64,000 bases of DNA, from the NCBI GenBank assembly GCA_047967505.1, contig CM106538.1; one strand, written 5' to 3'. The DNA comes from Dipteris shenzhenensis. Lineage: Eukaryota. Shown here piece after piece: positions 27,835-51,115 of the stretch. A program made the position numbers and the translations under genes. Under the pieces are notes generated by a model. The model saw only the letters and a list, made by a program, of their open reading frames with translations. It was not told the DNA's origin and did not search any database. Within the stretch, counting starts at the first letter, position 1; each line of letters begins with the position of its first letter.

Positions 27835-28983
27835 TGTGACGCTCCAATTTTGTATATGAAATATTTTGGAGTATATATCACAGATAGTGTTCAAAAAGGA
27901 TGGTTTTGATGTTTTAAAGGTTTTGGGAAAGTTTGGTGTTGGTCGAAAAATTTTGGTTTTTGTCCATTATGGTGTCGGCTGGATTTTGCGGCTTGATTTG
28001 AGTTGGTTAGAGAAATAATTTGAAGAAACTCTATATGAGAGAGTTTTAGATTTTGTTGAGTAGAAAAACTTTGTCCTGGTGAAAAATTTGTGGTTCACTC
28101 GTTTGCATGCCTGTATGGAGGTCAGAAGTTGCTAACAAAGTGGTTTTGAGCTAAAAGTGCATCTAGATTTCCGTGTCAAGAGTTGCAGGCATTAGACGGA
28201 GGTCGAGATGGAAGAGTTAGCCATGAAAGGTCAAATGCAAAAGGGAAAGAAGAGGGTCCGATCTTCGAGATGAGCTATTGAGCTTGTCCATTGGATCTAC
28301 GAGGCAGGCGTGGTGATGCTCCGAACAGGGCTGTTTTCATGCCTTTAAAAAACAAAAAGAAAAAAAGAAAAAAAGAGACACGTCGAGATTCCGTACGCGT
28401 TTGCTATCATAAGCGCACGCTAAAAGAAGGTGAAAAGCACACGCACGCTTTTGGAGAAAAGCTATTTTTGGCCGATTTTGGAGGCTTTTGGCCGCTTATT
28501 TTGGAGTCGTGAAAGGCTATAAAAGAAGAGGAGATCGTGAGAAGGAGAACACACAATCCAACGCATGCATATCGAGGCTGAGCGAAAGAGAAGAGAAGGC
28601 ACACATCTCGAGGTTGCTCGAGCGAAGAGAAGGCATGCATATCGAGGTGCTGCGAAAGTGACAATAGCGCACGCGAATCGAGGCAGTGCAAAGAAGAAGA
28701 TAAGATCAAGATATTTTGAGAGAGAGAGTGAGAGTGAGAGTGAGTGTGATTGAGATTTGATCATTGGATCATCTAATTTGAACATCTTCATGCGAGTGGG
28801 AGTGAGAGTGAGATATCTCGGGGGTGGACGGGTGGTATCGAGCTCCTTCACGGAGTGATTCTTCTCCAAAATTATTGTAAATACTCATCAGTTTGATTCA
28901 TACTGCAATCTTTCTTCTTGTTCATTCGTGATTATTATCTTGCTACAATTTTGATTGTGATTGTGAAAGAACGATGCGTGACA
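27835..28983 (+). repeat. 5' LTR (1149 bp)
   Basis: Direct repeat of 48265-49408 with scattered substitutions. Contains the TATA-like ctataaaag. Confidence 0.97.
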
Positions 28984-32000: not shown

Positions 32001-33544
32001 TCTTTCCGAGTATGACTTTGAGATTAAGTACATTGAGGGAAAGGAGAATAGGGTGGCTGATGCTTTAAGTAGAAGACCTTTCGTGAATGCCATCACCCTT
32101 ATTCGTTCCGATCTTGGAGAAAACATTAGAAATGAACTTGAACATGATGTTTCTTATGCACCTATTCTTCAAAAGATTGCTCAAACACCTTGTGAAAAGA
32201 TTGAAGGAAAGTCTCATTTGGTGAATGGTAATTTATATTGCCATGATAGACTTTGTGTACCATGTGATTCACCTTTGAGATGGAAAATCTTGTATGATTG
32301 TCACGATGCTCCATTTTCGGGACATGTTGGATATAACAAAACATACAGCAAGGTTCGAAAATCATTTTATTGGCCTACACTAAAGCATGGTGTTCATCGT
32401 TATGTCCAAGAATGCTTACAATGTCAACAAGTGAAGGTGGAACAACATAAGATGCCTGGTAAGATGCAACCTTTGGATATACCTTTCAGGAAGTGGGAAT
32501 CAATATCCATGGATTTTATTACTAAACTACCTACAGCTCGAGGGGGATATGATACCATTTTTGTCATCGTTGATCGTCTTACTAAAATGGCACATTTCTT
32601 TCCTATGAAAAAGACTGATGGTGCTCTTGAGGTAGCTAAGTTGTTTGTGAAAGAAATTTTCCGATTGCATGGGATGCCTAATAGTATTGTGTCAGATAGG
32701 GATTCCAAATTTACTTCTAATTTTTTGGAAGGTCACATTCAAAGCAATTGGGACGGAGCTTAAGATGAGTACAGCTTTTCACCCACAAACAGATGGAGAA
32801 ACTAAAAGGGTTAATCGCGTACTTGAGGATATGCTTCGAATGTATGTTAATGAGAAGCAAACAAATTGGACTGAATTCCTATCCTTAGCTGAGTTTGCTT
32901 ATAATAGTTCATGGCATAGCTCCATTCAAATGACTCCATTTGAAGCCATGTATGGTCAGAATTTCCACACTCTTGTGAATTTTGCAGATCCTCAAAATAG
33001 AGTCGAAGTGTCTAGACAAATGCTTGAGAGGATGGATGAGGAAGTGAAACTGATTCGGGAGAGCATTCAAAGAGCACAAGACATGCAAAAGCATTACTAT
33101 GATAAGAAGCGGTCTTTCCATGAATTTCAGATTGGGGAGATGGTATCTCTGAAAGTAATACCTAAACGCAGTAATCTAATCCTTGGGAAGGATAGAAGAC
33201 TCTCACCTCATTTCGTAGGACCTTTTCAAATCTTAAAGAGGGTGGGAACGCTTGCATATCAACTTGAACTGCATGAGAACATAAAAGTGCATCCTGTTTT
33301 CCATGTCTGTTTATTGAAATCTTATGTTGCCAACCCAACTCATATTTTTCAGGACAAGTCTAGGATCATGGAGGATGGGACTTTGAAAGTCGAACCTGAA
33401 TATATATTAGATAGGAACACGAAGCGGCTTAGGAATAGAACAATAGAAGAAGTTTTGGTTAAGTGGGATGCTTATCCTGTAGAAGATGCTTCCTGGGTAG
33501 ACTTAGATGCCTTACTTAATGAGTTTCCTTCATTTAAACTCTGA
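29073..33544 (+). pseudogene. Gypsy gag-pol (gag, CCHC knuckle, protease, RT, RNase H, integrase, chromodomain), disrupted by stops and frameshifts
   Basis: gag 29303-29821; CFRCGEQGHQTFEC knuckle; protease remnant near 30285; RT with [11 protein letters not shown] and FLDD (30764-31525); RH/INT with HHCC and SISMDFITKLP (31612-32763); GPF motif and chromodomain EVLVKWDAYPVEDASW (to 33544). Confidence 0.95.
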
Positions 33545-33546
33545 GG

Positions 33547-33573
33547 AACACACTATTCAAAATTTTTGGACTT
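33547..33573 (+). repeat. Left TIR AACACACTATTCAAAATTTTTGGACTT
   Basis: Exact reverse complement of 48209-48235. Confidence 0.95.
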
Positions 33574-33898
33574 TCTCTCTTGGTTTGGACTTTTTTTTGG
33601 AGCATATCCTTTCCACTCAACTTCACTTAGTGAGCTAAAAAATTGGGTTTTTTGAGCACTTAATGGGTCACTTATATACAAATATGGCCTTATTAAGCTA
33701 GTAAAAAGTCAAGTGGTAACCTCTAATTTTAAAAAAAATGGCTCGCTGAAGCTATAATTCCCAAACTCATGCATGGTGCCTCCATCCAATAACTATAATA
33801 ATAATAATAGTAGTCTCCTAACTCAAGTTCAATTTTAACACTATGAAGTGAAAATATGACACCATATGAAAAGAGTTTGTTGAATTCAACATATAAGT

Positions 33899-34158
33899 GG
33901 TGTATAGATACACCATTTAAAAAAAAAAAAAGAGTTTGTTGAATTCAATACATAAGTGGTGTATAGATACACCCTTTTTTAAAAAACAAACCATACAATA
34001 AATTATCTTATTGGTGGTGTATAGATACACCATTTGTATGGAAAAAAGCATACAAAACATTATCTTATGCATCTGAATCTCGTTATTGGTGGTGTATAGA
34101 TACACCATTTGTATGGAAAAAAGCATACAAAACATTATCTTATGCATCTGAATCTCGT
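33899..34158. repeat. Left subterminal repeats carrying the palindrome GGTGTATAGATACACC (4 copies)
   Basis: Copies at 33899, 33958, 34016 and 34091. Includes a ~75-bp tandem duplication overlapping the transposase stop. Confidence 0.85.
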
Positions 34159-37100
34159 TCAGAGTCATCAGACTCATGTAATGTATTTGAGCTTGATGGG
34201 TCAAGTCTTGCCAAATGATGTTTAATATGGACACGACTTGGATCAGGGATTGTGATACATTTTTCAACATTGTATCCATGCTTCTTTTTAAAACTTCGTG
34301 TCCTCGATTTCCAACAATGAATAATGCTACTGACTTCCACCTCTGTTAATCCCTCATTATTTGGAACCCATTCACGTTTCTTTTGCAAGCATCCCTCATA
34401 GAGTTGTTTTATTGTATATCTTCTCGGGAGATTTTTTAATGGCTTTGGTTCATACCATAAAGCTGTAAATGTTATAGGAGTTCCCTTGTCATCCCTTTCT
34501 ATCTTAGTAACCTTTGCAACCCAAATTGGGCCACCTTGGTCATCCAACTCTGAACCCGGATCACATGCCCAAACTGCAACAAATAGACCCTCTTCAATCT
34601 CATTACATGGTATAAACTCTGGTAAGGGTTTGTCTCCCTTCCTGCCACAATATTTTCGAGGTAAAAGGCATTCCTCTGCTTCCTCCATATCTACTAACAT
34701 ATTTATATCCAAAGGAAAACTTGGTGACCTAGCTTGTTCCGGCCAAAAGGATTCAGAGTATTCAATGCTCATTAAGTTTTCTTGTCTTTCTAAAGATTGG
34801 ATAAGTGCTTTAGTTGATTTAATTGTCTCCAAATTCTTAGTTGATTGCTCAGGATATTTCTGCATCATACTTTGAAGATGTTTAATGAAGGCTTTCAAGC
34901 CTTTCATTTCATCTATGTCAAGTGATTTGTTTTTTGCAAGAACAAATCTAGTTTCCTCCAATGGAATTATTCGTTGTAACAAAGCATATGACTCACTCCA
35001 TAAATGATCTCCATCTACTGAGTAGTGCTTCCATTGCATCACTGGAATATTGTTATGCATGTGAAACTGAAAGTAGTGTGGATTTGTGTGTCCTATTAGG
35101 GCATCATCTCCTGTTTGTAAATGTGGCTCTATAAATGCTCTCCAATCTACCATCCTCTCTAAGATAGCCACTTCTGATTCTTCCTTACGAGAACCTCCAA
35201 TTTTTTTCCCAATTCGAAATAGCATATCCTCCATTGTCAAAACATCCATTGCCTTCAACTCACCAGAGATAACACTGAAGATTTGATCTATGTCTTCATG
35301 TGTATGGCCGACAAGAAGAAAGCCAACTTCCACTTCTTCAAATATTTTCAGACCAACCAACATAGAGCATAAAGCAAATATATATTTATTCTTGTTCTCT
35401 CTCCAATAATTATCAGCTTGTATTCGCAATGTGTTAGGCAAACATCCGCGAGCATCTCTGACCTTTCTTATTGCTTTCATGATTGATGTAACAACCTGGT
35501 TACTATCATGGTCATGCAAACTATCAATCCATACATCACAAAATATTCGGTATCCATGTACTAATACTCCACACAAGTGTGTTTTTAGTCCACGTTTGCC
35601 CTCCAATGCCGGTGGGATACGTCTATATCGTGGCAAAGTGGTTGTATTCTGGTCCATGCCATCAATGGTGATGCACATGGACTTATTGACATGTGAAATA
35701 GCTTCCTCTCTCCAAGAAGCATACAACTTTCGAGCATCCTGCACATGACGTAAATGGATTGATCGCCATTTAATATATCTTCCTCGCTGCTGCTCACATT
35801 TACTATGTTCAATGGCATTTTTTAATTCATCACATGTCTTACATTTTGACATCCTTTGCTTTGATGGTGTCTTGACATGGCAAAAATCTCTACGCCAAAT
35901 TTTGTACAAGGTTGATCGTGAAATCATGCTCTCGTCTCTGTCTTGTAAAGTTTTATTGACAGTCTCTAGGACGACCTTCTTTGGCATTGGCATTCGACAC
36001 GTCCATCTAGCATTGTTTGTTGAAGATGAGGCTGTGGTAATGCATGGTCTTCGAGAACTTGCTTTAATGTTGCGGTTGCATTTATAGTGCTTCCATGGCA
36101 TTTAAGCTTGTACGTATTTCCATGAATTGTATGAATAACTTTTTCTTTCACCTCTGCCCAGATGGTCCAATATGTGCCATGTGATAGTCCAGTTAACCAT
36201 TGATATCCTCGATTGCAAATGGGTCTCCCATTAACCATGGGTTTCAATCTAGGTTTACAGTGTCCTGTGCTCAAATCTTGATTAGTGCCTTGATGAAGAA
36301 AGCATGAAAACTCTTGAAGAAGATAGTTATGTCTATTAGGCGCTGTCTTACTCCAAATACCAAGGCGTATGGCTGCACAATCATCTTTCCCAACTTTTCT
36401 AATGCAAAGTCTCTTGCAACAAACTCGCATAAGCATCCTTTCCATATTCTCCTCGGATAGCATCACATGTCTCTTTGGTTCTGGAATTGATGCCATGATT
36501 CTTCGCCTCTTCACACTCACATACTTTCTTTTTGTAAATAGTGTCTTGCGTTTTCTAGTTGTAAGACCATCAAACCTCGAATCCATTTCCCTTGAATCTT
36601 CATCTTTATAATCAAATGCTGTGTAGGCTTGAGAATTATTTGATACCTTATAATATCTTGGAAATGGCAATCTGGTCGACATGTTCATTGATGTCAATTT
36701 GTTGCTAATGCCTCTTGAATTTTGTGGTTGAACTGTTTCTCCTTCGTAACTCAAGATTCTCCCATCTATATTCTCTGGCATGCTAGCAACAATATTCTCA
36801 GATTCTCTGCCCCTTTTGCCTTGTATTGGAGTGGTAACATCATGATCATTGTCACTAATATCATCAATTCCTGTTATTGCATCACTTATCCCATTGATCT
36901 TTGCGTGTATTTTTCTTTGTGGTCCCATCTTATTATTTTCAACACATCTTCTGTCTTTTATATCAATAAGCATGTTTGAGTCACTTGCAGCACAAGACAA
37001 GTCTTCTATACCAGTGAGCCTGTTTGAGTCACTTGCAACACAGGATAAATCTTCTATACCAGTGAGCCTGTTCGAGTCACTTGCAACACATGACAAGTCT

Positions 37101-40100
37101 TCTATACCAGTGAGCCTGTTCGAGTCACTTGCAACACAAGACAAGTCTTCTATACCAGTGAGTATATTTGAGTCACTTGCAACACAAGAAACCTTTTCTG
37201 CATCAACATCTGTTACTATAATGTCCTCGATACCTGTGAGCATGCCACTATGATACTCTTGATTACTACTATAGCTTCTTATCAATTTGGATCCCATTTG
37301 TGTTATAGTCTTTTTCTTCTGATAATATTCTGTTGTGTCTTCCATGACATTGAAGGAAACTGTCTTGGGCAAACTTGATTTCAAGAAAGCTAACCCCCAT
37401 TTACAAGTACTATGAACTTGTAGTTGAGACGTAGTATTATGGACGTCTAATTGTGAAGTACTATCCATTGCATTTTGAATGACACCTGCACTAGTCAACT
37501 TAATTATCTCCACTATACAGAGAAAACTCTGAGCATAGCCCTTAAAGTTGCCAATTGCTAAAACTTCTCCGAAGCGAGATAACATCTGTACTTTTTCCCC
37601 CTGGATATAAGTTTTCTTGATATCTTGAAAGTATGTCTTTGGAACAATTTCGTCTTGGTCCCAGAGTGTTCTGTGTGCTTGCATATCAAATATATCACAT
37701 TGTAAGATATCTCCCAATGTTTCAAAGTCTCCATGTGGATATTTTAAATGTACTTCAGGATTTACAACGTTGGTGATTATCACTACACATCTTCTCTCAC
37801 CACAACGTTGAAAATGACACACATTCATAGGATCAAGACTATGAATTCGTCCAAAAGCCACCACTTCATTCTTCTCATATAACACCACATCCATACCCTC
37901 TGTTAGGGTGAATACCTGTTTTATGTATAAAAGTAAATTAGCAACTCAAAATGAACATTTAATAAATAACCATTGAGCTTATTATTACTTAATAACTTCT
38001 ATATCAAAACTAGCAGAGAAGGCATTAACCTAAACCCTACATCCTAAACTTTAAATAATTAATACCAAAACATCTTAACCACCGTAAATCCTAAACTTTA
38101 AACATTTAATTCTTAAACCCTAAATCCTAAACCCTAAAAATATAATCATAAACACTAAACCCTAAACACTAAATCTTAAATCCTAAGCCCTAAATCCTTA
38201 ACCCTAAATACTAAACCCTAAACCCTAACCTAAAATACAATCAAAATTTTATGATTTTTCTCGATTTGTACAACATGTTAGATATACCCCCAACTCAAGC
38301 AACACGTTGGGGGGTATATCCGACCTGTTGCACAAATCTAGAATTTTCTCGATTTGTGCAACAGGTCGGATATACCCCCCAACCTGTTGCTCAAGCAACA
38401 GGTTGGGGGATATACCTGCAACCTGTTGCTTAAGCAACAGGTTGGGGGGTATATCCAACCTGTAGCACAAATCGAGAATTTTCTCGATTTGTGCAATAGG
38501 TTGGATATACCCCCAACCTTGTTGCTCAAGGTTGGGGGGTATATCCTACCTGTTGCACAAATCGAGAATTTTTTCGATTTGTGCAACAGGTTGGATGTAC
38601 CCCCCAACCTGTTGCTCAAGCAACAGGTTGGGGGATATACCCACAACCTGTTGCTTAAGCAACAGGTTGGGGGGTATATCCAACCTGTTGCACAAATCGA
38701 GAATTTTCTCGATTTGTGCAAGAGGTTGGATATACCCCCAACCTTGTTGCTCAAGGTTGGGGGGTATATCCTACCTGTTGCACAAATCGAGAATTTTCTC
38801 GATTTGTGCAACAGATTGGATATACCCCCCAACCTGTTGCTTGAGCAACAGGTTGGGGTATATCCAACTTGTTGCATGAATCAAGTTGGATATACTCCAA
38901 CATGTTGCACAAATCGAGAATTTTCTTGATTTGTGCAACAGGTTGGATATACCCCCAACCTGTTGCACAAATCAAGAAAATTCTCGATTTGTGCAACATG
39001 TTGGAGTTACTCCCCAACCTGTTGCTTGAGCAACAGGTTGGGGGGTATATCCGACCTGTTGCACAAATCAAGAATTTTCTGGATTTGTGCAACATGTTGG
39101 ATATACCCCCCAACCTGTTGCTTGAGCAACAGGTTGCGGGTATATCCCCCAACCTGTTGCTTGAGCAACAGGTTGGGGGGTATATCCGACCTGTTGCATA
39201 AATCGAGAAAATTTTCGATTTGTGCAGCAGGTCGGATATACCCCCAACCTGTTGCTTAAGCAACAGGTTGGGGGTATATCTAACATGTTGCACAAATCGA
39301 GAAAAATCATAAAATTTTGATTGTATTTTAGGGTTAGGGTTTAGGGTTTAGTATTTAGGGTTAAGGATTTAGGGCTTAGGATTTAAGATTTAGTGTTTAT
39401 GATTATATTTTTAGGGTTTAGGGTTTAGGATTTAGGGTTAAAAATATAGGGTTTAGGGTTTAGATTTTAGGGTTTATGATTATTGTTTTAGGGTTTAGGA
39501 TTTAGGTTTTAAGGTTTAGTATATAAGATCATGAGCTTAGAGTGTAGAATCTAGGGTTTAGAATTGAGAATTAGGTTTTAGAATTTAAGTTATAGGGATT
39601 AGGATTTAAGGTTTAGGAATTATAACTATTATATAAGTTTAAGAGCTTAGATTATATAACCTAAGATTTAGGAAACTTTAGGATTTAAGATTTAGGGTGT
39701 AAGATTTAAGATATATAGACTATATAAAATATGCATTCTAAAGTATTTAGTTTAGATATATATAGACTATATGTTATATGCTTTCCAAAGTGTTTTGTTT
39801 ATAGGTATGATACATTGCAAAGGCTTTACTTTAAGTAAGTATAAGTCTACCTAGTCAAAGTAGGATCAAAGTATCCTACTGATTAGGGACAAGCACATAG
39901 GCTAAAAGCACACCGATTCATATTTTTTTACATTCATGCTGCATGGTGTATCAAAAGGTACGATCCTTTGCAAAGGCTTTACTTTAAGTAGTTACAAGCC
40001 TACCTACTCAAAGTATCCTACTGATTAGGAACAAGTACATAGGCTAAAAGCACACCGATTCGAAGAAGTGATGTATGCACACTGATTAGGAAGAAGTGCA

Positions 40101-41693
40101 TGGTGTATGAGAAGAAATGAAAAAGTATTTGATAAGAAATATTCGAAGAAATATATATTCCATATCATGGACATTCTAAGAAATATGTATTCCATATCAT
40201 GGATACCATGGATATCTGGTGCTTGCTAAAGTAAAAAAAAATGATATGGATGCAATGATAATGTAGTCTTCTAGATTCTATGGTTTTAAATACCTACCTT
40301 ACAAATACATTATCTAATTTTGCATTCTTTCGACTAACCAACAAGTATTATACACATGGAATCATGGATATCTGATGGTTACTAAAGTAAAAAAATGATA
40401 TGGATGCAATGATAGTGTAGTCTTCTAGATTCTATGGTTTTAAATAACTACCTTACAAATACATTATCTAATTTTTCATTTTTTGACTAACTAACAAGTA
40501 TTATACATATGGAATAAAAGCATACATGCTAAAAGTAAGTGTGTAAATTTTAATATTTTCTAAATTTTAAAATTAATTTAATTCTTTTATTGACTACTTT
40601 TTAAAATTGAAAGGTTATTAGTATATAATCTACATAATTTTAAATGTTATTAATGTATAATATTAATTATTTATATATTTATTTAAATTTATATAATAAT
40701 TAATTTATATTTATATTAGTTTTTAAGTTAATAATGTATAGAAGAGCAATATATTCACTAATTCTTCATTGTTTTAAGACTAAGTATTATATAAAGCACA
40801 TATGCTAGAAGATCTCCTTTCAATTTTTTTCTTAAATTAATGTATTTATATATTTATTTATATAATAATTATATAATATTTATATTAATTTATAGATTAA
40901 TAATATATATTTTTAGTAAAATTATATTTTAACATTAGTTAATAAAAATTTAATTAATTATATTATGGGGTAAAAATATTATAAATGGATTTCTTATATT
41001 AATAAAGTGTAGTGAGAAGAGTTTTTTGAAAAGATTTATGATTGAATTTTGTTTTGAAGTTGTTGCGTACGCAATAGGTAGGACATTTGAGTGGTTTTGA
41101 GATTGATAGAGATATTTGTAATAACGTGTAGTGAGAAGAGTTTTTTGGAGGATTTGTGGTAAAATTTTGTTTTGAAGTTGTTGCGTACGCAATAGGTAGG
41201 GAGGTTTGAGTGCTTTTGAGGTTGAGAGAGAAATGTGTTATAGATTTTTTTTTTTTTAAAAGGAGTTTTTTGGAGAGATTTATGATTGAATTTTGTTTTG
41301 GAGTTGTTGCGTACGCAATAGGTAGGGAGGTTTGAGTGGCTTTGAGGTTGAGAGAGAAATTTGTAATAGATTTTTTTTTTTGGTTGATGAGTTTTTTTGA
41401 GAGATTTATGATTAAATTTTGTTTTGAAGTTGTTGCGTACGCAATAGGTAGGGTTTGAGTGTTAAATTTTGTTTTGAAGTTATTGCGTATGCAATAGGTA
41501 GGGAGGGGTTGTGAGAGTTTGAGTTAAAGAGGAAAATTTATGGAAAAAAAGATTTAATGCTAAAATGGTTTTTTAAGTTGTTGCGTACACACAAGTTTTT
41601 TAGAAAAAAATCGGATTTGAAAAAAAATTCAAATTTATAAAAACTTGATTCTTAGAAGTTCTTGCGTACGCAACAACTCACCTCTTGCATCAT
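34140..41693 (-). CDS. DDE/DDD transposase gene (Sola-like/DUF7869-like core). Predicted exon 1 41693-41682 (MMQE), exon 2 from 37915; one frameshift near 35990
   Basis: Core motifs: CKTC, ITIDGMDQ, LRIQADNYWRENKN, FLLVGHTHEDIDQIFS. The N-terminal ORF (37894-35966) has Tnp1/EnSpm-like VAFGRIHSLDP domains and a CCKRLC...PICNR Cys region. Splice signals: AG|GTGAGT donor at 41681, CTAAT branch and CAG acceptor at 37916; the splice is in frame. Confidence 0.85.
36975..37190 (-). repeat. Coding 48-bp (16-aa) tandem repeat LTGIEDLSCVASDSNR, ~4.5 copies
   Basis: gagtcacttgca recurs every 48 bp and stays in frame in ORF 35966-37894. Confidence 0.92.
38027..38233 (+). repeat. Degenerate plant telomere-type repeats (CCCTAAA)n
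   Basis: Runs of taaaccc/taaatcc/taaacac. Confidence 0.85.
38113..39440. repeat. ~1.3-kb fold-back (inverted-repeat arms) filled with nested palindromic units
   Basis: Arm ~38113-38290 is the reverse complement of ~39270-39440. The interior is built from ACCTGTTGCTYRAGCAACAGGT and TGTTGCACAAATCGAGAATTTTCTCGATTTGTGCAACA units joined by GGGGGTATATCC/GGATATACCCCC. Confidence 0.92.
39327..39710 (+). repeat. Degenerate plant telomere-type repeats (TTTAGGG)n
   Basis: Runs of tttaggg/tttagga that decay with distance from the fold-back. Confidence 0.85.
39800..40510. repeat. Two local tandem duplications (~120-150 bp each)
   Basis: ~39805-39920 repeats at ~39957-40060; ~40207-40360 repeats at ~40362-40514. 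Confidence 0.75.
41010..41680. repeat. AT-rich ~120-bp tandem array, each unit with TGTTGCGTACGCAATA
   Basis: Motif at 41061, 41179, 41305 and 41431, with variants at 41481, 41579 and 41660. Confidence 0.9.
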
Positions 41694-41789
41694 TTTGAAA
41701 ATTTTTGCGAATCCTGCAACAGGTTGATGAGAGAAGAGAAGCGTGGAGTGTAAACGAATGATCTTTGAATGAAAGAGAGAATGAAGAAT

Positions 41790-41885
41790 GTTCTACTTAT
41801 AGTGAACCTAAAAGAACTAAAAAAACCTTAAAAACTAAAAAAAGCGGACTTGACCTAAAAGCTATCCATTTCCTATAAAACTCTA
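41790..41885. promoter_or_regulatory. Candidate bidirectional promoter of the DNA transposon
   Basis: Plus-strand TATAAAA at 41874-41880 and minus-strand TATAAG at ~41796-41801. Each is followed by a pyrimidine-rich leader and a splice donor (41964 plus; 41681 minus). Confidence 0.65.
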
Positions 41886-41963
41886 CTTCTCCTCATTCTG
41901 TCTCACAACTCTCTTATTCTCTTTCACAACTCTCTCCTGGAGCTCCACCACCTCTCCACTCAG

Positions 41964-43832
41964 GTACTCCCTCCCTCCCTCTTCTCCAACTTCCTCTCTC
42001 CCCTCCCCTTCCCGTCCCTTCCCCTCTCCTCCCGCTTCTCCCCTCCCTTCCCTTCCCCCTTCTCCTCTCCTCCCTCCCCAAGGCCCCTTCCCTTCCCATT
42101 GCCTGCTCCCTCCTCCTTCCGTCCCCTTCCTTCCCTTCCCCCTGTCGTCGCTACCCCGCTCCCACCCCCCTCCGCCCCCCTTCCCTCTTCTCCGCCCTTC
42201 CCACTCCCCTCCCTCCCTCCGTCCCGCCCTCCGCCGCACCCCCCTCCTGCCCTGTCGTTGACCCTTTGCCCCCCCTTCCCTTCGCCCTCCCCTCCGTCCC
42301 TCCCTCCCTGCCGCCCTCCCCCCCTCCGCCTCCCCCTTTCCTCCCCTCCGCCCCCAAGCCCCCCCTTCCCTTCGCCCTCACCCCCGTCCCTCCCTCCCTG
42401 CCGCCCACCCACCCTCCCCCCCTCCGCCTCCCCCTTTCCTCCCTCCGCCCCCAACCCCCCGCCCCCTCCCGCCCTCCCCACGCCCCCCCCCGCCGGCGCG
42501 CCCGCCCCCTTCCGTCGTCGGAAGGGGACGGGCGCACCGGGGGGGGGGCGTGGGGAGGGCGGGAGGGGAGGGGAGGGGGGCGGGCGTGCCGGGAGGGGGG
42601 GTTGGGGGCGTGGCGAGGGCGGGGCGGGCGCGCCGGGAGGGGGGCTGGGGGCTGAGGGAGGGGGGGGTGTGGGGAAGGGGAGGGGGGGCAAGGGCGCCCC
42701 CCCCCCACCTGTTGCGCACGCAACAGGTGGGGGGGGGGCGCCCTTGCCCCCCCTCCCCTTCCCCTCGCGCCCGCCCCCCCTCCCCTCCCGCCCTCCCCAC
42801 GCCCCCCACCGCGCACGGGGGGGGGCGTGGGGAGGGGGGGAGGGTCGGGCGTGGGGGGGGCGGGAGGGGAGGGGGGGCGTGGGTGGGGCGGGGGGCGTCG
42901 CGAGGGCGGAGGGGGGGCGGGCGCGCCGGGAGGGGGGGCTGCGGGGGGTGGGGAAGGGGAGGGGGGCGAGGGCGCCCCCCAACCTGTTGCGTGCGCAACA
43001 GGTGGGGGGGTCAATCCCCCCCACCTGTTGCGCACGCAACAGGTGGGGGGGCGGCCCCCCCCACCTGTTGCGTGCGCAACAGGTGGGGGCTTCCCCCTCC
43101 CCTCCCGCCCTCCCCACGCCCCCCACCGCGCGCCCGCCCCCCTTCCGGACGGAAGGGGGCCCGCCCCCCCCTTCCGAACGGAAGGGGGGGCGTGGCGTGG
43201 GGGGCGCGGGAGGGGAGGGGGGGCGTGGGTGGGGCGCGGGGGGGCGTGGCGAGGGCGGAGGGGGGGCGGGCACGCCGGGAGAGGGGGCTGTGGGAGGCGG
43301 GGTGTGGGGAAGGGGAGGGGGGCGAGGCGCCCCCCAACCTGTTGCAACAGGTGGGGAGCTTCACCCCACCCGCCCCCCTTCCCTCCCATCCGCCCATCCC
43401 TCCCGCCTTCCCCTTCCCTCCCCCAACCCCTCCTTCCCGCCCCCCGCGCGCCTGTCCCTCTCCCCTCCGCCCCCACGTGCCCTCCCCTCCGCCCCGTTCC
43501 CTCCCCTCCAACCCTCGCACACCCCCGTCCTCCCCACGCCCCCGCGCGCGCGTTGAGAGGGGGGTTGGGGGCGGAGGGAAGGGGGGGTGGGGGAGCGCGA
43601 GAAAGGGAGGGGGGCATCGATGCCCCCACCTGTTGCGCACGCAACAGGTACCCCTCGCCCCCCTCCGCTTCCCTCCGCCCGCCCGACCCCCGCTCCTTCC
43701 TTCCCTTGCCCCTCCCCTTCCCTCACCACATGCACACACACGTGTGGAGAGGGAAGGGGAGGGGCAAGGGAAGGGGTGTGGGGAAGGAGCAAGGGGGAGG
43801 AGGGCGGGCGGAGGGAAGAGGTGGGCGTGGGT
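41964..43832. repeat. Extremely GC-rich low-complexity tract with G/C runs and embedded palindromes (predicted 5'-UTR intron)
   Basis: Alternating C-rich and G-rich blocks. ACCTGTTGCGYRCGCAACAGGT cores at 42710, 42985, 43026, 43066 and 43631. CCCTTCCG..CGGAAGGG hairpins near 42516, 43150 and 43178. Confidence 0.9.
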
Positions 43833-44012
43833 GATTAAAATAAACTAACTAATTAAAATAAAATAATTTAAAAAAATATTTTATTTTAAAAATTAAAAAT
43901 AAATAAAACTTAAAAAATATTTAATTAAAAATTTATTTAATATTTTGAGTTTGAAAATCATTGTATTTCTCATTTTTTATTTTTGATTGTTTTTCAGAAA
44001 ACTATAGCTTTC

Positions 44013-47000
44013 ATGGCTTCCAGTTTTGGTTCCAAGGTGTCTTTCAAATACCTTGAACATGCTTGGTATTTTATGGAGCGGAAATCAAAGTATTTTTTGG
44101 TGATCACTTCAGAGAACATATCAAGCCCGAAATATTCTGCAGAGGCAGTAAGAAATGGTGGCATGGTATCAAACATCAATATTAAAGAAAACAATTTAAT
44201 AGAAATTGTGTGCCAAGGAAAGAATGACGAGGTGGTTTACAAGTTACGAGTTACTCCGAAGCACTTCTTGAAACCGTTACCAGATTCAATTGAGGGATCC
44301 CAAGAATTACTTAATGCCTTAGAAGCATTGAAGAAAATGTGGGATGCATTTCCAAGTGGTGGTGTTGAACCTTCAGGGGCATTAATTATGCCATCTATTC
44401 AAGTACCGTCAATATCTGTGGCGGTAACTCCGATAACTCCAACAAGTGTAACTACAGTATCTCCAACTGTACCTATGCCATCGACTGCTGCAACTACAGG
44501 AACAAGAAGGAGTGATCGTGGAGTAGACTCAAGTGCTATAGCTATTCCTAGAAAGAGAGCAAAAATAACTCCTACTCCACGTGGAGATCGCTCAAGTGCA
44601 GGCTATTTAAAACCTGGCGAAAAATTGGATAGCGATGAAGAGAAAGATCAGCAAGAAGAAGATACAAGTCTCGAAGACTTTTCTATAAGTGTGGCGGACT
44701 TACATCCTCCAGAGGATGAGGGATACATTTGGGGATTTTCACAATTCAGCGTGGCCACAATGCTTATTGATCGAGCTTCATTGTTCACAAATCAAAGAAA
44801 GCTCGATAAGATATTTGCACGCAAATTGTATGAAGATACAAGGAAAACAAGAACTCCCGTTGCCACTAATATCACTCTTCGTCCTATGGCGTTTAAGAGA
44901 CTTCAAGAAGATGATCCCACATTGCCTGATGTCACATTTCAAAAGCGCGTGGACTTTCTTGATGCTTTTGAGAACTTTAGAAAGAGTGACTTTGTTCGTG
45001 GAGAGGCTTTGTATCAAAGCCGATATGGGAGTGACATCGAGAAGAGATACATGCTGGCAAAGAATAGATTCTTAGAAAGATGTAGGTTTGAGCCCATTGA
45101 TGGGCAACACTTTTGTGAGGCTTGCAGGATCGCCCTTGATGAGGGAAGAAAAGGAAACTTGCCACAGATTGAGTGGATGGAAAAGTTTCAACGGGTCATT
45201 TGTCATATATGCATATTTAATGATGACTCGAAGTACATTCTAGAATCAGAGAGGCTGAACTCTGCTCCATTTAGGTTGAAAAAAAGCTCTTCTCTTTCTG
45301 AGATCTTGATAAAGGCAAGGGAGTTATGGATGGGCTGTGGAAAGCCACAAACAGTGAAGGGCAGGAGACCTACATCAGAGTACATGACAAAGAGGACTCG
45401 GTTCTATAGATGCTTGAAAGGTGTTGTAAGCAATACGCAAGGCATACCAGGTAACAAGGTTGAGGCAAAGGATTTGAACACCGCTGTTGCAAGATATAGG
45501 GATGTTACCTGCATTGTCTTCCGTGAGGAATCAGTGTTTCAGAGCATCGTGGATGTTTGCCAAGCATATGAAACAGGAAAGATATCCTTTGAGGCACCAG
45601 AGCACATTGCAACTCAGAGGAAAGAAATAAAGAAACCGATGTCTATTGTTTGGTGGAGAGCTTTAAGGTTTGTTCCAGATGCAATAACAGAAGAAGTATG
45701 CAAGAAGATCCTAAGTGGTGACTGCTTCTTTGGAAAGAAGAGCAAGCATAGCAACTTAGATGAAGTGGTCACCCGAATGATTCAAAGTGAGGCTGCTCTC
45801 TCGGCACTATTATTTTTATTGAAATCTGATGATGAGTTAGCTGGCAAGTCAATTGATGTGGATAAGAAGAAAGCACTTAGCCTAGGTCAACTCCTTGATA
45901 AAACATGGGCTAGAAAGTGGTTGGCTTCAATGGATGCAGATGCCACACCAACAAAGGATCTAAGAGCTAAAATGCCAAAGGTTGTTGAGACAGAATATAT
46001 GGACATTAAGAAAAAGGCCTTGCAGTCCAGTACGCAAGGTAGAGCAATTGGTGGTTTAGATGATGGTTCTTCATTCAGCTTCTCTTATGATATCCTGCTA
46101 TCAGAGAATGATACAAAATTTGCACACATCAATGGCATTGATACGGAGCATTTCATAACAATGAGCGGTCATGCTTGGGAGAAGCCATGCGTATTTTTCA
46201 TAAATGAATTGCAAGACCTTGCAGTGTCACAGATAGTTGAACTTGTGCGGTTTATTGTTGAAGGTCCTATGGCAGATAAGAAAAGATCAACGTTGGTCCT
46301 GTTCGTGACAGAATCACAAAGGGATGCCCTATATGCGAGTTTGACATCTTCATTTGGGTATTTACTTTCAAAAGTATACCATGGTATAGTCCTGCGTAAT
46401 CATATGACTGTCTTGGAAGGCACTGCCATTCAAGTCTTGCAGCCTTTCTTGATGTGCTTCTTATCGAGGGGTGGTGGTAATCTAATCCAAACTCCTTTAA
46501 GGACTCTCGAGCTTCATTACTTTGAGGACCATAAGGTTAAGCTTGATGCAGCAATGGTGGATTACAGAAAGCCGATGGATCCTGATGTGATACTAGAGAT
46601 GACAAAGAATTTATTGAATGATGGGTGGGAAGTAGCATTGTATCGAATGGGTTTTGCTGCTGAGAAATTGCTACGGCAAGGTAAAAATGTAAATGTTATT
46701 GATACCCCCCATCAAATTGAGTTCTTTGACACATATTACAGTTGCACTACTTTCTTTGAGGAGGAAAATGTCAAAGAAGAGGGTAGTGAGTCTGAGGGTG
46801 ATGATTCTAGCTCAGGTGATGATGAGGATGAAAGCTCTGCATCCGATGACTTACGGCAAGAAGAAATCCGCACAAAGAATAAGGGTGATCAATTGTCAAC
46901 TAGAGTCAAGGAGGTTCCACTCATCATACGGGAAGGTTCACGGCAACAAGAAGTTACAGTAGTACAGCACGTCACAGGTAAAGGTAAGGCTAAAGAGGTG

Positions 47001-47417
47001 GAAGCACTTCCCTTAAAATTAAAAGTGAGAAAGGCACCCTTGATCTTGGATGAAGGACAGGCAAGTGGATCGATCTTGGGTGAAGGACAGGCAAGTGGAT
47101 CAAGCAAGGAAGCCTTACTCAAAGAAGGTATGGACGAGGCAAAGCATGACCAGGAGGAGTTACCAGGAGGCATAGATGGTTCTTCAACCATGACCTTACA
47201 GACTCCAGAGCAGCCTACTAGTCAGGAACCTAGTAGCCAGGTCCCTACTTACCAAGAACTTGGTCATGAGACTCTAGAGCAGCCTACTAGTCAGGTGCTT
47301 GGAACTGAAGAGCAAACTAGTAAGGACCTTGCTACTGAGACTCCAGTCTTAGAGCAGCCTATTAGTCAGGACCCTGGTAGTCAAGGGCCTGGCATTGAGG
47401 ACATTGGTACTGAGTAA
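44013..47417 (+). CDS. Intact ~1134-aa transposon-borne protein: ParB/Sulfiredoxin-like domain, degenerate N4/N6 DNA-MTase-like domain and acidic repetitive tail
   Basis: Uninterrupted 3.4-kb ORF; first ATG at 44013 just after a polypyrimidine-CAG acceptor (43997). NQRKLD..FARKLYE..NITLRP..FEPIDGQHFCEA (DGQH at 45099-45110). The MTase-like pattern spans ~46119-46730. Domain calls are by eye. Confidence 0.85.
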   Translation: MASSFGSKVSFKYLEHAWYFMERKSKYFLVITSENISSPKYSAEAVRNGGMVSNINIKENNLIEIVCQGKNDEVVYKLRVTPKHFLKPLPDSIEGSQELLNALEALKKMWDAFPSGGVEPSGALIMPSIQVPSISVAVTPITPTSVTTVSPTVPMPSTAATTGTRRSDRGVDSSAIAIPRKRAKITPTPRGDRSSAGYLKPGEKLDSDEEKDQQEEDTSLEDFSISVADLHPPEDEGYIWGFSQFSVATMLIDRASLFTNQRKLDKIFARKLYEDTRKTRTPVATNITLRPMAFKRLQEDDPTLPDVTFQKRVDFLDAFENFRKSDFVRGEALYQSRYGSDIEKRYMLAKNRFLERCRFEPIDGQHFCEACRIALDEGRKGNLPQIEWMEKFQRVICHICIFNDDSKYILESERLNSAPFRLKKSSSLSEILIKARELWMGCGKPQTVKGRRPTSEYMTKRTRFYRCLKGVVSNTQGIPGNKVEAKDLNTAVARYRDVTCIVFREESVFQSIVDVCQAYETGKISFEAPEHIATQRKEIKKPMSIVWWRALRFVPDAITEEVCKKILSGDCFFGKKSKHSNLDEVVTRMIQSEAALSALLFLLKSDDELAGKSIDVDKKKALSLGQLLDKTWARKWLASMDADATPTKDLRAKMPKVVETEYMDIKKKALQSSTQGRAIGGLDDGSSFSFSYDILLSENDTKFAHINGIDTEHFITMSGHAWEKPCVFFINELQDLAVSQIVELVRFIVEGPMADKKRSTLVLFVTESQRDALYASLTSSFGYLLSKVYHGIVLRNHMTVLEGTAIQVLQPFLMCFLSRGGGNLIQTPLRTLELHYFEDHKVKLDAAMVDYRKPMDPDVILEMTKNLLNDGWEVALYRMGFAAEKLLRQGKNVNVIDTPHQIEFFDTYYSCTTFFEEENVKEEGSESEGDDSSSGDDEDESSASDDLRQEEIRTKNKGDQLSTRVKEVPLIIREGSRQQEVTVVQHVTGKGKAKEVEALPLKLKVRKAPLILDEGQASGSILGEGQASGSSKEALLKEGMDEAKHDQEELPGGIDGSSTMTLQTPEQPTSQEPSSQVPTYQELGHETLEQPTSQVLGTEEQTSKDLATETPVLEQPISQDPGSQGPGIEDIGTE

Positions 47418-47559
47418 CATGTTGGCTAACGGCTTTGTAATCACAAGTTTTGAACTTCTATGTAAAGCTAATATCTAATGAAAAGTTTACTACTTTTTTT
47501 ATTTCTTTACTCTCATTATTATGTATAAAGATTGTTTATGAGGGCCATTTTATACTTAA

Positions 47560-48135
47560 CGGTGTTTTTTAATACCAAGTGTGGTGTATATGTACACTAC
47601 TTACACATAAAAGGATTTATCTACACTACCTTTCTAAGGGCTTTATGTACACCACCTTTCTAAAAGAAATGGTGATAAAGGTGTGTGCACACCACTTATA
47701 CATAAAGGTGTTTATTTACACCACCTTTCCAAGAGAATTGGTCATGTATTGGTCATCTATTGATGTTCTTACGTGATTATGAAGATGTTTATGTAGACCA
47801 CTTTGTAAGAGAATTGGTCATCTATTATTGGTCATGTATTGATGTTCTTAGGTGATAGTTGCTCAATTCACAAGAAGTTATAAAGATGTTTATGTAGACC
47901 ACTTTGCAAGAGATTTTTGTGAAGTTATGAAAATGTTTATGTAGACCCCTTTGTAAGAGATTTGGTTATGCATTGATTTTTGTGAAGTTATGAAAATGTT
48001 TATGTAGACCCCTTTGTAAGAGATTTGGTTATGCATTGATGTTCTTAGTACTTAATTATTAAATCTTTTGTTTTGAGTTGGCAAATCTAGTTCAAAATCA
48101 TTAAATCTTTTGTTTTGAGTTGGCAAATCTAGTTA
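47560..48135. repeat. Right subterminal tandem repeats of the DNA transposon
   Basis: Repeated atgtttatgtagacc.cttt units, a duplicated aaatcttttgttttgagttggcaaatctagtt, and GGTGT-N6-ACAC[C/T] palindromes at 47583 and 47707. Confidence 0.75.
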
Positions 48136-48208
48136 AAAAACAACATTACTAGTATATTCAAAATTTTTGGACTGTTTTTTAGTCCATTTCTCAAATTGGA
48201 CTTTACAC

Positions 48209-48235
48209 AAGTCCAAAAATTTTGAATAGTGTGTT
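48209..48235 (-). repeat. Right TIR
   Basis: Reverse complement of 33547-33573. A 19-bp internal inverted copy lies at 48155-48173. Confidence 0.95.
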
Positions 48236-48250
48236 GAGGATAGAGTTCCT

Positions 48251-48264
48251 GAAGAGGGAACGGA
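48251..48264 (+). promoter_or_regulatory. Polypurine tract of the Gypsy element
   Basis: GAAGAGGGAACGGA immediately before the 3' LTR TG. Confidence 0.9.
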
Positions 48265-49408
48265 TGTGACGCTCCAATTTTGTATATGAAATATTTTGGA
48301 ATATATATCACATATAGTGTTCAAAAAGGATGGTTTTGATGTTTTGAAGGTTTTGGGAAAGTTTGGTGTTGGTCGAAAAATTTTGGTTTTTGTCCATTTT
48401 GGTGTCGGCTGGATTTTGCGGCTTGATTTGAGTTGGTTAGAGAAATAATTTGAAGAAACTCTGTATGAGAGAGTTTTAGATCTTGTTGAGTAGAAAAACT
48501 TTGTCCTAGTGAAAAATTTGTGGTTCACTCGTTTGCATGCCTGTATGGAGGTTAGAAGTTGCTTACAAAGTGGTTTTGAGCTAAAAGTGCATCTAGATTT
48601 CCGTGTCAAGAGTTGCAGGCATTAGACGGAGGTCGAGATGGAAGAGTTAGCCATGAAAGGTCAAATGCAAAGGGAAGGAAGAGGGTCCAATCTTCGAGAT
48701 GAGCTATTGAGCTTGTCCATTGGATCTACGAGGTAGGAGTGGTGATGCTCCGAACAGGGCCGTTTTCATGCCTTTAAAAAAAAAGAAAAAAAAAAGAAAA
48801 AAAGAGACACGTCGAGATTCCGTACGCATTTGCTATCCTAAGTGCACGCTAAAAGAAGATGAAAAGCACATGCACGCTTTTCGAGAAAAGCTGTTTTTGG
48901 CCGATTTTGGAGGCTTTTGGCTGCTTATTTTGGAGTCGTGAAAGGCTATAAAAGAAGAGGAGATCGTGAGAAGGAGAACACACAATCCAACGCACGCATA
49001 TCGAGGCTGAGCGAAAGAGAAGAGAAGGCATGCATCTCGAGGTTGCTTGAGCGAAGAGAAGGCACGCATATCGAGGCACTGTGAAAGTGACAATAGCGTA
49101 GGCGAATCGAGGCAGCGCAAAGAAGAAGATAAGATCAAGATATTTTGAGAGTGAGAGTGAGAGTGTGATTGAGATTTGATGATTGGATCATCTGATTTGA
49201 ACATCTTCATGCGAGTGAGAGTGAGAGTGAGAGTGAGATAGCTCGGGGGTGGACGGGTGGTATCGAGCTCCTTCACAGAGTGATTCTTCTCCAAAATTAT
49301 TCTAAAGACTCATCAGTTTGATTCATACTACAATCTCTCTTCTTGTTCATTCGTGATTATTATCTTGCTACAATTTTGATCGTGATTGTGAAAGAACGGT
49401 GCGTGACA
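48265..49408 (+). repeat. 3' LTR (1144 bp)
   Basis: Direct repeat of 27835-28983, followed by TSD GGAAG. Confidence 0.97.
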
Positions 49409-49615
49409 GGAAGTCATGGTTGCCTTGACATTGTTCTAGCACAATAATATGAGAGTTTCTCTAAATAATAAGAACATTTGTGGGCTACAGATTGGATGCA
49501 ATACACATGGTTGACACAATGTAGGTCAATCAAAATTTCAAAGCTGTCTTGGCCTATCTTTTTTCCTCGCAAATCATTATGTTGGTACATTTACAGTTGC
49601 ATCTTATGAAATTTG

Positions 49616-49647: not shown

Positions 49648-50197
49648 ATTCTCTTACAAGCTTGGTGTTGAAATAACAATCATCGTGCTGGTTCTAGTTG
49701 AGTGTAACCATTTTTTGTGAAGTTCAAGGTGATGATGGAGTGCCAATATTTAAACATCATGCTGGGTGTGTCGGTTTGGAGAGGAAGATTTTCTATTGAA
49801 TTCATGAGTCTGCAACTTGTTGGGGAGGGTTGTTAGCGAGAGAGAGGGAGCTACTTGCCAAGGAGGGGAGAAATAACAATGGTTGCAACCACTATGCTAG
49901 TTGTCTATTGGTATTATGATGGTCAATTTTCATTTGCATTTTCTGAAATTTGGGGGGCCAAGCCCAATTTGAGCTCCTTGTCTTTAAGATCTTTTGCCCA
50001 AATGGAAAATTGAGCTGCAACATCTACTTTCTTGTCGTGGATAGTTGTAGTTGGCAGGCACATTTGATTTGTCCATGACTTGGGAATGCCAAATGGCATT
50101 CTCTACGTAGTGATTTTGTATGCACAAACACTCCAAAGCAAAAAACGTGCACAGAGTGGTAGAATGCAGGCCATCAGAAACAGCAGTCGTCTATGAT

Positions 50198-51115
50198 GGG
50201 GGTGTTGGAGGTAATGGCCTTCACCCTCATGTGCATGTGTGGAAAAATACAAGAAAAAGAGGGGGAATACCCTGTGTTGTTGACACGTGTACAAAAAGGG
50301 GGATGACCATCCCATAATCACTTGTGGCCCTTGGAGAACCTTGTATATAATGCCTTGATTGAGCCCCTCTCTCTCATTCCTCCTGGGACATTTTGGGAGA
50401 AGAGAGAGGCTTCTTGCATGTGGCTATGGGGTGGGGCTTGGGACCCCTACACCCGATGTGTTTCCCAAGGTGACACATGGCATTTGCTACATGTCCCTTT
50501 AGTTGGTACCAGAGCCTTCTTTGGCGATGTTTTTGCAAGCTGTGGCAACACGTGGTAGTGTGATGCATTTTTCAGATAGGTCCTTGGCTGCAGAGTGTCA
50601 TGATCTATGGCGGATATTGAAAGTGTGACATTATTATGGTAGGGTGGCTATTGCTAGCACCGGCGGTTGTTTGTTTATCAACTAGTTTGGTTTGACACGT
50701 GGGATTTGAATGCAATTTGGGGCAGCTTTGATTTGTGCATATCTCGGTGTTGTTTGTGATGCATGAACCTTTGTGTATGGTTGGATTTAATGCTTTGGGT
50801 TCGTCCATGGGGGGGTGTTGGAGGTAATGGCCTTCACCCTCATGTGCATGTGTGGAAAAATACAAGAAAAAGAGGGGGAATACCCCGCGTTGTTGACACG
50901 TGTACAAGAAGGGGGATGACCATCCCATAATCACTTATGGCCCTCAGAGAACCTTATATATAATGCCTTGATTGAGCCCCTCTCTCTCATCCCTCCCGGG
51001 ACTTTTTGGGAGGAGAGAGAGGCTTCTTGCACATGGCTATGGGGTGGGGTTTGGGACCCCTCACTCGGCATGTTTCTCAGGGTGACATGACGTGGCGTTT
51101 GCTGTGTGTCCCTTC
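50198..51115. repeat. ~300-bp direct duplication (50198-~50500 and 50811-~51115)
   Basis: gggggtgttggaggtaatggccttcaccctcatg... occurs twice with high identity. Confidence 0.85.

Follow-up and report, generated by a model that had tools for sequence, protein, structure and literature searches.

We describe a stretch of 64,000 nucleotides from contig CM106538.1 of the Dipteris shenzhenensis assembly GCA_047967505.1; this whole stretch is what we call the window. Near its middle are two long genes that read away from each other, one on the minus strand and carried by two open reading frames (ORFs) of 642 and 653 aa, the other on the plus strand and carried by a single ORF of 1134 aa that we call ORF2. 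The 6.1 kb between the ORFs (37895-44012, the spacer) is filled with arrays of palindromes. An earlier note on this DNA had singled out the spacer, and proposed that two co-regulated genes share a bidirectional promoter at its centre, and that the arrays flanking that promoter are spliced out of both messages as parts of first introns. We find that the two divergent genes belong to one cut-and-paste DNA transposon of 14,689 bp (33547-48235), that the flagged region is its internal spacer, and that the insertion site of the transposon is, to the base, the stop codon of a chromovirus pol gene. Coordinates are collected in Table 1.

The ends of the element are well defined. The 27-bp terminal inverted repeat (TIR) has just its two matches in the window, even when up to 3 mismatches are allowed, and beyond 27 bp the two ends diverge. 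The TIR begins AACAC, or ACACAC under the shorter reading, and the junctions fit a target duplication of 4 bp (GAGG) or of 6 bp (TGAGGA) equally well in this one copy. The left duplication overlaps the TGA stop codon of the host pol gene (33542-33544), and removing the transposon in silico restores the pol stop, from which about 27 nt, including the polypurine tract, lead to the 3′ long terminal repeat (LTR). Inside the TIRs both ends carry subterminal repeats, and the TACACC and TAGACC motifs of the right end are related to the GGTGTATAGATACACC of the left. The TIRs, the target duplication and an RNase H-like core with a conserved acidic triad are the features that place the element among the TIR DNA transposons. 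A search with the TIR gave 0 matches in viral contigs and 0 in prokaryote genome contigs, and no Rfam family is found within 33000-49500. Among 10 public sequencing runs listed, 6 contain a small share (0.05-0.15) of the stretch, and none of the listed runs is an RNA run that contains it.

The transposase gene ends 0.6 kb from the left TIR and ORF2 ends 0.8 kb from the right TIR. Since both genes end near the termini of the element and both read outward, the 6.1-kb spacer must contain the promoters of both.

The minus-strand gene encodes a transposase of DDE type that belongs to the uncharacterised DUF7869 family and has an integrase-like RNase H fold. Its 653-aa ORF matches Pfam PF25273 (DUF7869) with an E-value of 6.9e-52 and 176.3 bits (cut-off 26), covering profile positions 4-190 of 192. 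We find 109 homologues of this ORF, in metagenomes, bivalves, echinoderms, amphioxus, a hemichordate, a sea anemone, Chara braunii and the liverwort Riccia. An AF2 model built on 42 sequences has a pLDDT of 81.9, and in a structure search with it (VIA; 48,161 chain representatives) the top 17 rows consist of retroviral integrases and of the Mos1/Metnase, IstA and TnsB transposases, with Z 7.7-8.9 across model residues ~80-455 and a core at ~125-308. Foldseek reports nothing for the model at E <= 0.001; its top rows are mostly RNase H-like proteins (Argonaute/PIWI, Mos1, IstA, TnsB, EndoV, RNase HI). There is no rve-type Pfam match at E <= 0.01. Five acidic residues, D147, D230, E269, D270 and D272, are nearly invariant in the 42 sequences. 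D147 is predicted at the end of strand 1, D230 just past strand 4 (a first D-to-D spacing of 83 residues), and E269, D270 and D272 at the start of the next helix, a placement that, in the model, is the DDE/D arrangement. Two other Foldseek rows, both with probability 1.00, are DNMT1 (6w8w_B) and EBS (5z8n_B), chains which contain BAH chromatin-reader domains. These rows hint that the beta-rich C-terminal domain of the transposase (34140-34700, residues ~505-615) may be BAH-like.

The N-terminal part of the transposase is in the 642-aa ORF, which includes 4.9 copies of an in-frame 48-nt repeat (36953-37189), that is, a 16-residue repeat LTGIEDLSCVASDSNR. Its N-terminal domain resembles PF03017 (TNP1/En/Spm) at E 0.0035 and 17.6 bits, under the cut-off of 21. 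The first 68 residues match residues 75-138 of a relative, P0002 (E 2e-4), in which 74 residues precede the domain. A word-based search (restricted to "near" lengths), PDB sequences and NCBIfam gave nothing for this ORF, and the Atlas leads for it and for ORF2 are weak (DUF3723-type fungal clusters at 0.89-0.90, arthropod clusters at 0.82-0.83). A metagenome scan with the 642-aa ORF gave a single locus (L001), which we discarded as spurious: the match is 46% over ~31 residues, on a contig of 60% GC with no ORF on that strand.

The reading frame of the transposase is broken in this copy. Full-length relatives have 1044-1070 aa, with DUF7869 beginning at about residue 530, and what lies ahead of it in them aligns to the 642-aa ORF, in the other frame. 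The two closest relatives (P0001 and P0159, 61% identity) read unbroken across the ORF junction. Their match runs in the 642-aa frame up to 35987 ("HALPQPHLQ..DG.V.C") and in the 653-aa frame from 35987 on ("M.K......VNK"), and the 642-aa frame ends 7 codons past that switch point. By these alignments the break at 35987 is a frameshifting indel, with which the copy as assembled would be unable to make a full-length transposase, and it may itself be a sequencing error. An intron joining the two ORFs was considered and rejected. There is no room for one, because the homologues carry more residues at the junction than the window has codons.

Homology searches also touched prokaryotic and viral collections. 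The transposase alignment matches 17 contigs (L002-L018) filed as bacterial metagenome-assembled genomes, at 25-64% identity over the best segment; most of them, 1.5-6 kb long, are probably eukaryotic DNA that was misbinned. Two of the DUF7869 relatives sit on large contigs, of 589 kb and 733 kb (L003, L005). Viral contigs gave 0 matches to the protein or to the transposase alignment, and there are no relatives of ORF2 on any of the 18 loci examined (L001-L018).

ORF2 matches nothing in Pfam, NCBIfam, PDB sequences or the word-based search of "near" lengths. An exhaustive HMMER search finds 47 relatives, almost all of them short fragments. Six fragments, from other public assemblies, are 88-93% identical to ORF2, which suggests that the element belongs to a multicopy family with sister copies in those assemblies. 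The longer relatives are distant (up to 1488 aa, 27-29% identity), and no Pfam domain was found in any of the nine that we tested. The AF2 model of ORF2 is poor (pLDDT 48.5), with confident islands at ~290-360 and 730-790; in the fold search it comes closest to a generic alpha/beta domain (Z 6.4). The string "PIDGQHF" had made us suspect a ParB/DGQHR-like domain; Pfam and NCBIfam at E <= 5 give that suspicion no support. ORF2 is the obvious candidate for the second protein of the element, possibly one that binds DNA.

Table 1. Features of the nested transposon, its spacer and its host element (positions in the window; "proposed" features are read from sequence signals).
Feature	Position	Strand	Remarks
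Host element, complete Ty3/gypsy chromovirus	27835-49408	plus	LTRs, duplication, primer-binding site, polypurine tract, gag-pol
Left target-site duplication GAGG	33543-33546		or TGAGGA at 33542-33547 if the TIR is one base shorter
Left terminal inverted repeat, 27 bp	33547-33573	plus	27/27 identical to the reverse complement of 48209-48235
Left subterminal repeats	33899-34159		4 copies of palindrome GGTGTATAGATACACC in 57- and 75-bp units
Transposase catalytic part, 653-aa ORF	34140-36101	minus	DUF7869 core residues 167-361, helical region, C-terminal beta-rich domain
Frame break	35966-36000	minus	closest homologues switch from 642-aa to 653-aa frame at 35987; 642-aa frame stops at 35966
Transposase N-terminal part, 642-aa ORF	35966-37894	minus	beta domain residues 3-68, Cys-rich region ~490-570
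Proposed exon 2 5′ end, VFTLTEG	37895-37915	minus	in-frame, stop-free, seven codons ahead of ATG 37894
Proposed transposase first intron, 3766 nt	37916-41681	minus	GTGAGT (41681-41676) ... CTAAT ... CAG (37918-37916); read from signals
Degenerate CCCTAAA-type telomere-like array	38020-38250		left arm of 1.7-kb foldback
Palindrome array A	38256-39310		225-bp and 96-bp units, 9 full 36-bp palindromes, plus ~64-bp palindromes
Degenerate TTTAGGG-type array	39310-39710		right arm of foldback
Array F	41013-41453		3.6 copies of 126-bp unit, each with GTTGCGTACGCAAT-AGGTAGG
Proposed transposase exon 1	41682-41770	minus	ATG-free leader, 61% pyrimidine, then ATGATGCAAGAG 41693-41682; start ~41770 guessed from TATA
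Proposed bidirectional core	41796-41880		TATAAG minus 41801-41796; TATAAAA plus 41874-41880
Proposed ORF2 non-coding exon 1	41881-41963	plus	77% pyrimidine, ATG-free
Proposed ORF2 5′ untranslated region (UTR) intron, 2034 nt	41964-43997	plus	GTACTC ... T-rich tract ... CAG; read from signals
GC-rich block	41965-43830		65-80% GC vs ~40% in surroundings; C/T-rich and G/A-rich arms, nested hairpins
ORF2, 1134 aa	44013-47417	plus	conserved part residues ~200-1010; tail acidic, low-complexity
Right subterminal repeats	47580-48140		TACACCAC / TGTAGACC motifs in 26- to 79-bp units
Right terminal inverted repeat, 27 bp	48209-48235	minus	exact reverse complement of left TIR
Right target-site duplication GAGG	48236-48239		or TGAGGA at 48235-48240

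The spacer is built from repeats on both sides of a unique central segment (41540-41965). On the transposase side, 38020-39710 is a self-contained 1.7-kb foldback, in which array A lies between mirror telomere-like arms. Telobox-like motifs are known regulatory sites in plants. The 36-bp palindromes of array A have the form C-run/AACCTGTTGC-N4-GCAACAGGTT/G-run, and these and the ~64-bp palindromes are both built on the half-site CAACAGGTTGG. Toward the centre there follow short direct repeats and a stretch of 21% GC, and then array F, of which a degenerate copy (41472-41485), a remnant (~41578) and an inverted copy (41661-41674, beside the proposed minus donor) lie outside the array. On the ORF2 side, the GC-rich block is centred on 5 palindromes (C-run/ACCTGTTGC-GYRC-GCAACAGGT/G-run), with one spacer-less copy at 43338-43351, and about 160 nt of AT-rich DNA separate the block from ORF2.

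These palindromes are confined to the spacer to a degree that chance does not explain. All 14 matches in the window to the long palindrome CCTGTTGCNNNNGCAACAGG are in it, nine at 38383-39267 and five at 42708-43648, with 0.00 expected by chance, so the earlier note was right that full-length copies fall inside the two proposed introns and nowhere else. The core GTTGCNNNNGCAAY (GTTGC-N4-GCAAY) has 32 strand matches, which make 18 sites, all within 38386-43645 (0.22 expected). The half-site GCAACAGG has 41 copies in the window, every one of them in 38324-43648, including one at 41716 in the proposed minus-strand leader. Folded as RNA, 38250-39320 (1071 nt) reaches -871 kcal/mol with almost every base paired, and 42440-43420 (981 nt) reaches -866 kcal/mol, with z = -35 against shuffles.

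What could the palindromes be for? The same 14-bp core is common to three arrays: one of ~40% GC, one made of 126-bp units, and a block of ~80% GC. Because it persists across arrays of such different unit and composition, the core appears to have been kept for a reason, most simply as the site of a dimeric protein. We lean slightly towards reading the 18 core sites as putative binding sites for a dimeric protein encoded by the element, through which the arrays would act as operators or enhancers of the two divergent genes. Three observations weigh on the other side. The AT-rich array A and the GC-rich palindrome array are homologous, with 77-bp matches at ~81%, so that the shared core could come from common descent followed by palindrome-driven homogenisation, and not from selection for binding. 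No DNA-binding domain is recognised by Pfam or by fold search in ORF2 or in the N-terminus of the transposase. And with its transposase frame broken, the copy may no longer be under any selection.

A separate question is where the two genes start. Start sites of head-to-head genes less than about 1 kb apart would mark a bidirectional promoter, and the ORFs here, divergent as they are, stand 6.1 kb from each other. In the arrangement that the earlier note put forward, transcription would begin at the central TATA pair, at 41801 on the minus strand and at 41874 on the plus strand, and splicing would take out the arrays with two introns, the first of the transposase gene (3.77 kb) and one in the 5′ UTR of ORF2 (2.03 kb). 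We re-read 37600-44400 and all of the features listed for this arrangement are there, on both strands. On the minus strand there is no ATG from TATAAG to 41694, and the donor AGGTGAGT (AGGTRAGT), one of 4 such sites on both strands of the window (128 kb), comes 12 nt past the first ATG after that leader. At the other end of the intron a branch-like CTAAT lies ~25 nt before the CAG, with 14 pyrimidines in the 25 bases that precede it. As the note had said, the joined reading MMQE-VFTLTEG-MDVVLY is in frame with the 642-aa ORF. On the plus strand the donor CAG/GT at 41961-41965 is weaker (AG/GTACTC), and the acceptor CAG that ends at 43997 follows 25 bases of which 20 are pyrimidines (19 of them T). 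Both proposed introns thus have GT..AG ends and the donor, branch and polypyrimidine signals of U2-type introns. The layout was also described as a mirror image, and loosely it is one, but the arrays begin ~8 nt from the minus donor but ~740 nt from the plus donor. On the minus side it is the inverted motif copy at 41661-41674 that lies ~8 nt from the donor, and the 126-bp array starts at ~230 nt.

The palindrome arrays are a real and unusual feature, and we find this model reasonable; as to whether the central TATA pair provides the start sites and the arrays leave as two 5′ introns, we are evenly divided. The features that go beyond chance are the palindromes, very strongly, and the minus donor. 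CAGGTA occurs 9 and 11 times on the two strands of the window, and TATAAAA 14 and 12 times, so that neither motif by itself is beyond chance. The "CT-rich leader" of the plus side is not a discrete unit; it is the first 85 nt of an unbroken pyrimidine-rich block that extends to ~42520. The AGT of the minus donor lies in the inverted array-F motif AGTTGTTGCGTACGCAA, which recurs four times further along, and the donor may be a by-product of that repeat. A 2-kb intron built of hairpins at 65-80% GC is unusual for a plant-type spliceosome, and immediately ahead of both ORFs the DNA is AT-rich and TATA-like. Moreover, the splice and TATA signals were picked out in a reading that set out to find them, and a discount for multiple testing is due. 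These caveats weigh against the central start sites, and words such as "intron", "leader" and "promoter" are, throughout, our interpretation of sequence signals.

The same points make room for another arrangement of the same transposon, in which the promoters would be proximal to the genes, in the AT-rich segments 37900-38020 and 43840-44010, the spacer would be untranscribed, satellite-like fill, and the central signals would be there by chance. Neither proximal region has upstream ATGs, and the AT-rich, TATA-like DNA immediately before both ATGs, the frequency of TATAAAA and CAGGTA, the non-discrete plus leader and the overlap of the donor with a repeat motif all favour it. So do the full-length transposase relatives (~1050-1070 aa), which are single ORFs on contigs of 3.8-10.5 kb, four of the five contigs being under 5 kb. 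Several observations go the other way. Correctly oriented TATAAA is absent from the 1.9 kb that precede the transposase gene (none on the minus strand between 37900 and 39797), and the central TATAAAA is the sole plus-strand TATAAA within 2.1 kb upstream of ORF2 (none between 41875 and 44013). The perfect AGGTGAGT donor stands exactly at the end of a would-be in-frame first exon, and strong acceptors stand 16 nt ahead of ATG 44013 and 21 nt ahead of ATG 37894. Finally, the homology of the N-terminal domain continues upstream of ATG 37894: the P0002 alignment starts 6 codons before it and reaches 37912. We regard gene-proximal promoters as a tentative possibility, to be taken seriously.

It is also conceivable that the palindrome blocks and the telomere-like ones came in later, as insertions of unrelated elements of foldback or miniature inverted-repeat transposable element type, or arose by local amplification, and have no role for the transposon that hosts them. 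The 1.7-kb foldback is indeed self-contained, with telomere-like outer arms, and internal tandem arrays are common in large plant transposons. On the other hand, the 14-bp core is found in three separate arrays on both sides of the centre, and the half-site in the minus leader as well. One foreign insertion is not expected to produce that recurrence, and by eye no target duplication is visible at the borders of the foldback. We think this reading quite improbable.

That these are two ordinary host genes sharing a bidirectional promoter, as their divergent orientation and long open ORFs might suggest, is highly improbable, since a single TIR pair and a single target duplication enclose both, one of them is a DDE transposase, and the unit is embedded in an LTR retrotransposon, with the pol stop on one side of it and the polypurine tract on the other. 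The earlier claim of two co-regulated genes therefore survives in part: they are a functionally linked divergent pair inside one unit bounded by TIRs and a target duplication, and they are a transposase and a second ORF, not host genes.

Overall, we read the spacer as the internal region that controls both genes of a DUF7869 transposon sitting inside a chromovirus, and to the fuller explanation that we rank first we give an even chance. Under this explanation the GTTGC-N4-GCAAY sites would be bound by ORF2 or by the N-terminal region of the transposase, and the arrays of sites would act as operator or enhancer for both genes and could act as an internal transposition enhancer too, like the operator/IAS of phage Mu. 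With transcription from the central TATA pair, each pre-mRNA would carry a near-perfect hairpin on the kilobase scale that would draw the splice sites together, and these hairpins could feed small-RNA silencing of the transposon. A stronger version, which we consider unlikely, is that a DUF7869 lineage of plant-like genomes maintains kilobase-long, near-perfect hairpin arrays of GTTGC-N4-GCAAC in the first introns of both genes. These arrays would make each round of transcription yield both mRNAs and long double-stranded RNA, with the sites, bound by a protein of the element, acting at once as a bidirectional switch and a transposition enhancer. If true, it would be a built-in circuit that links expression to self-silencing and mobility, and nothing of the kind is described for eukaryotic DNA transposons.

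How does this element compare with known transposons? The names DUF7869 and PF25273 were not found in the literature that we searched. The nearest described family is GingerRoot, a judgement for which motifs were compared by eye. GingerRoot elements are integrase-related DDE transposons found in lycophytes, bryophytes and marine animals; they have a 6-bp target duplication and TIRs of 100-150 bp that end TA..TA or TG..CA, and their DDE region matches Ginger2 by BLAST, according to the portions of the description cited here (PMC6839031). The element in the window shares with them the integrase-like DDE core, the 6-bp duplication (under one of its two readings) and, by eye, the order of motifs (MD..DK / hHG / R.xD..E / G..TH...I-acid). 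The range is also alike, non-seed plants and marine invertebrates, since the DUF7869 matches include Riccia, Chara, bivalves, echinoderms, amphioxus and a sea anemone. The differences are several. The TIR here is 27 bp and starts AACAC or ACACAC, unlike GingerRoot TIRs in both length and terminus; there is no rve-type Pfam match, although the fold matches retroviral integrases; and the first D-to-D spacing, at 83 residues, is longer. The strings HTHED and DGMDQ are absent from the published DDE alignment, and neither a second gene nor internal palindrome arrays are mentioned, in those same portions of the GingerRoot description (PMC6839031).

The closest functional parallels to our element may be En/Spm and phage Mu, by analogy and not as homologues. 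In maize En/Spm, motif repeats next to the promoter are bound by a protein of the element that regulates transcription and aids transposition, and the element has a long first intron and two proteins. En/Spm has CACTA termini, a 3-bp duplication, one promoter at an end of the element, two products made by alternative splicing, and a PF02992 transposase. Like it, the element described here is a large plant TIR transposon, and its transposase has the sub-threshold N-terminal resemblance to PF03017. We rejected membership in CACTA/En-Spm (CMC), as the termini and the length of the duplication differ, there is no PF02992 match, and PF03017 scores 17.6 bits where 21 are needed. In phage Mu, the operator/IAS is an internal region of repeated protein-binding sites between divergent promoters that is also the transposition enhancer for a DDE transposase. 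Unlike the spacer, it is a region of a few hundred bp without introns in a bacterial virus, and no homology is implied.

MuDR and PIF/Harbinger elements need a second element-encoded protein in addition to the transposase. The genes of MuDR converge and are driven from the TIRs, and the second protein of Harbinger is Myb-like. The two-gene autonomous layout is shared with the element described here, whose genes, unlike theirs, diverge from an internal spacer and whose ORF2 has no recognised domain. Sola elements have a DDD transposase and a 4-bp duplication, which is one of the possible readings here. In the sections of the source cited, Sola cores matched no Pfam family in 2017 (PMC5751038), and therefore DUF7869 could be the Pfam face of one such superfamily. 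Dada elements, in the parts of their description cited here, have no TIRs, insert in small RNA genes and carry a DxxH motif after the second D (PMC3706591). We rejected membership in Dada, as our element has TIRs, its target is the pol stop of a retrotransposon, and no Rfam family is found at the site.

The host chromovirus has LTRs at 27835-28983 and 48265-49408 with TG..CA ends, 94.5% identical (1092 of 1155 columns in a self-comparison of the window), and a 5-bp target duplication, GGAAG, at 27830 and 49409. It has a primer-binding site TGGTATCAGAGC of tRNA-Met type and a polypurine tract GAAGAGGGAACGGA. ORFs for gag, reverse transcriptase, RNase H, integrase and chromodomain extend to 33544, with gag-pol split over several frames.

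Elsewhere in the window, fragments of a CACTA-type transposase lie on the plus strand at 21202-23165 (PF02992, E 4.5e-23; DUF4218, E 3.4e-19). An inverted pair of segments, 25470-26920 and 58900-60452, 76-85% identical, flanks the retrotransposon region, and each segment has an ORF with a weak match to an ABA/WDS-induced protein (E 3e-5 to 9e-5). Other direct repeats outside the transposon, 83-89% identical, are at 50187-51123, 60821-62380 and 7883-11634.

DUF7869 proteins are widespread, in marine invertebrates, a stonewort, a liverwort and many environmental contigs. The locus described here contains a complete DUF7869 element whose ends are clean and which has a target duplication, a second gene and a catalytic fold of integrase type, so that the family can be treated as a transposon superfamily or lineage. 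For genome annotation, it means that pairs of ORFs like this one belong in the transposon mask and should be kept out of host gene sets. The near-intact copy is material for a transposition assay, and in the palindrome arrays there is a specific candidate, open to test, for the means by which a transposon may coordinate its two genes.

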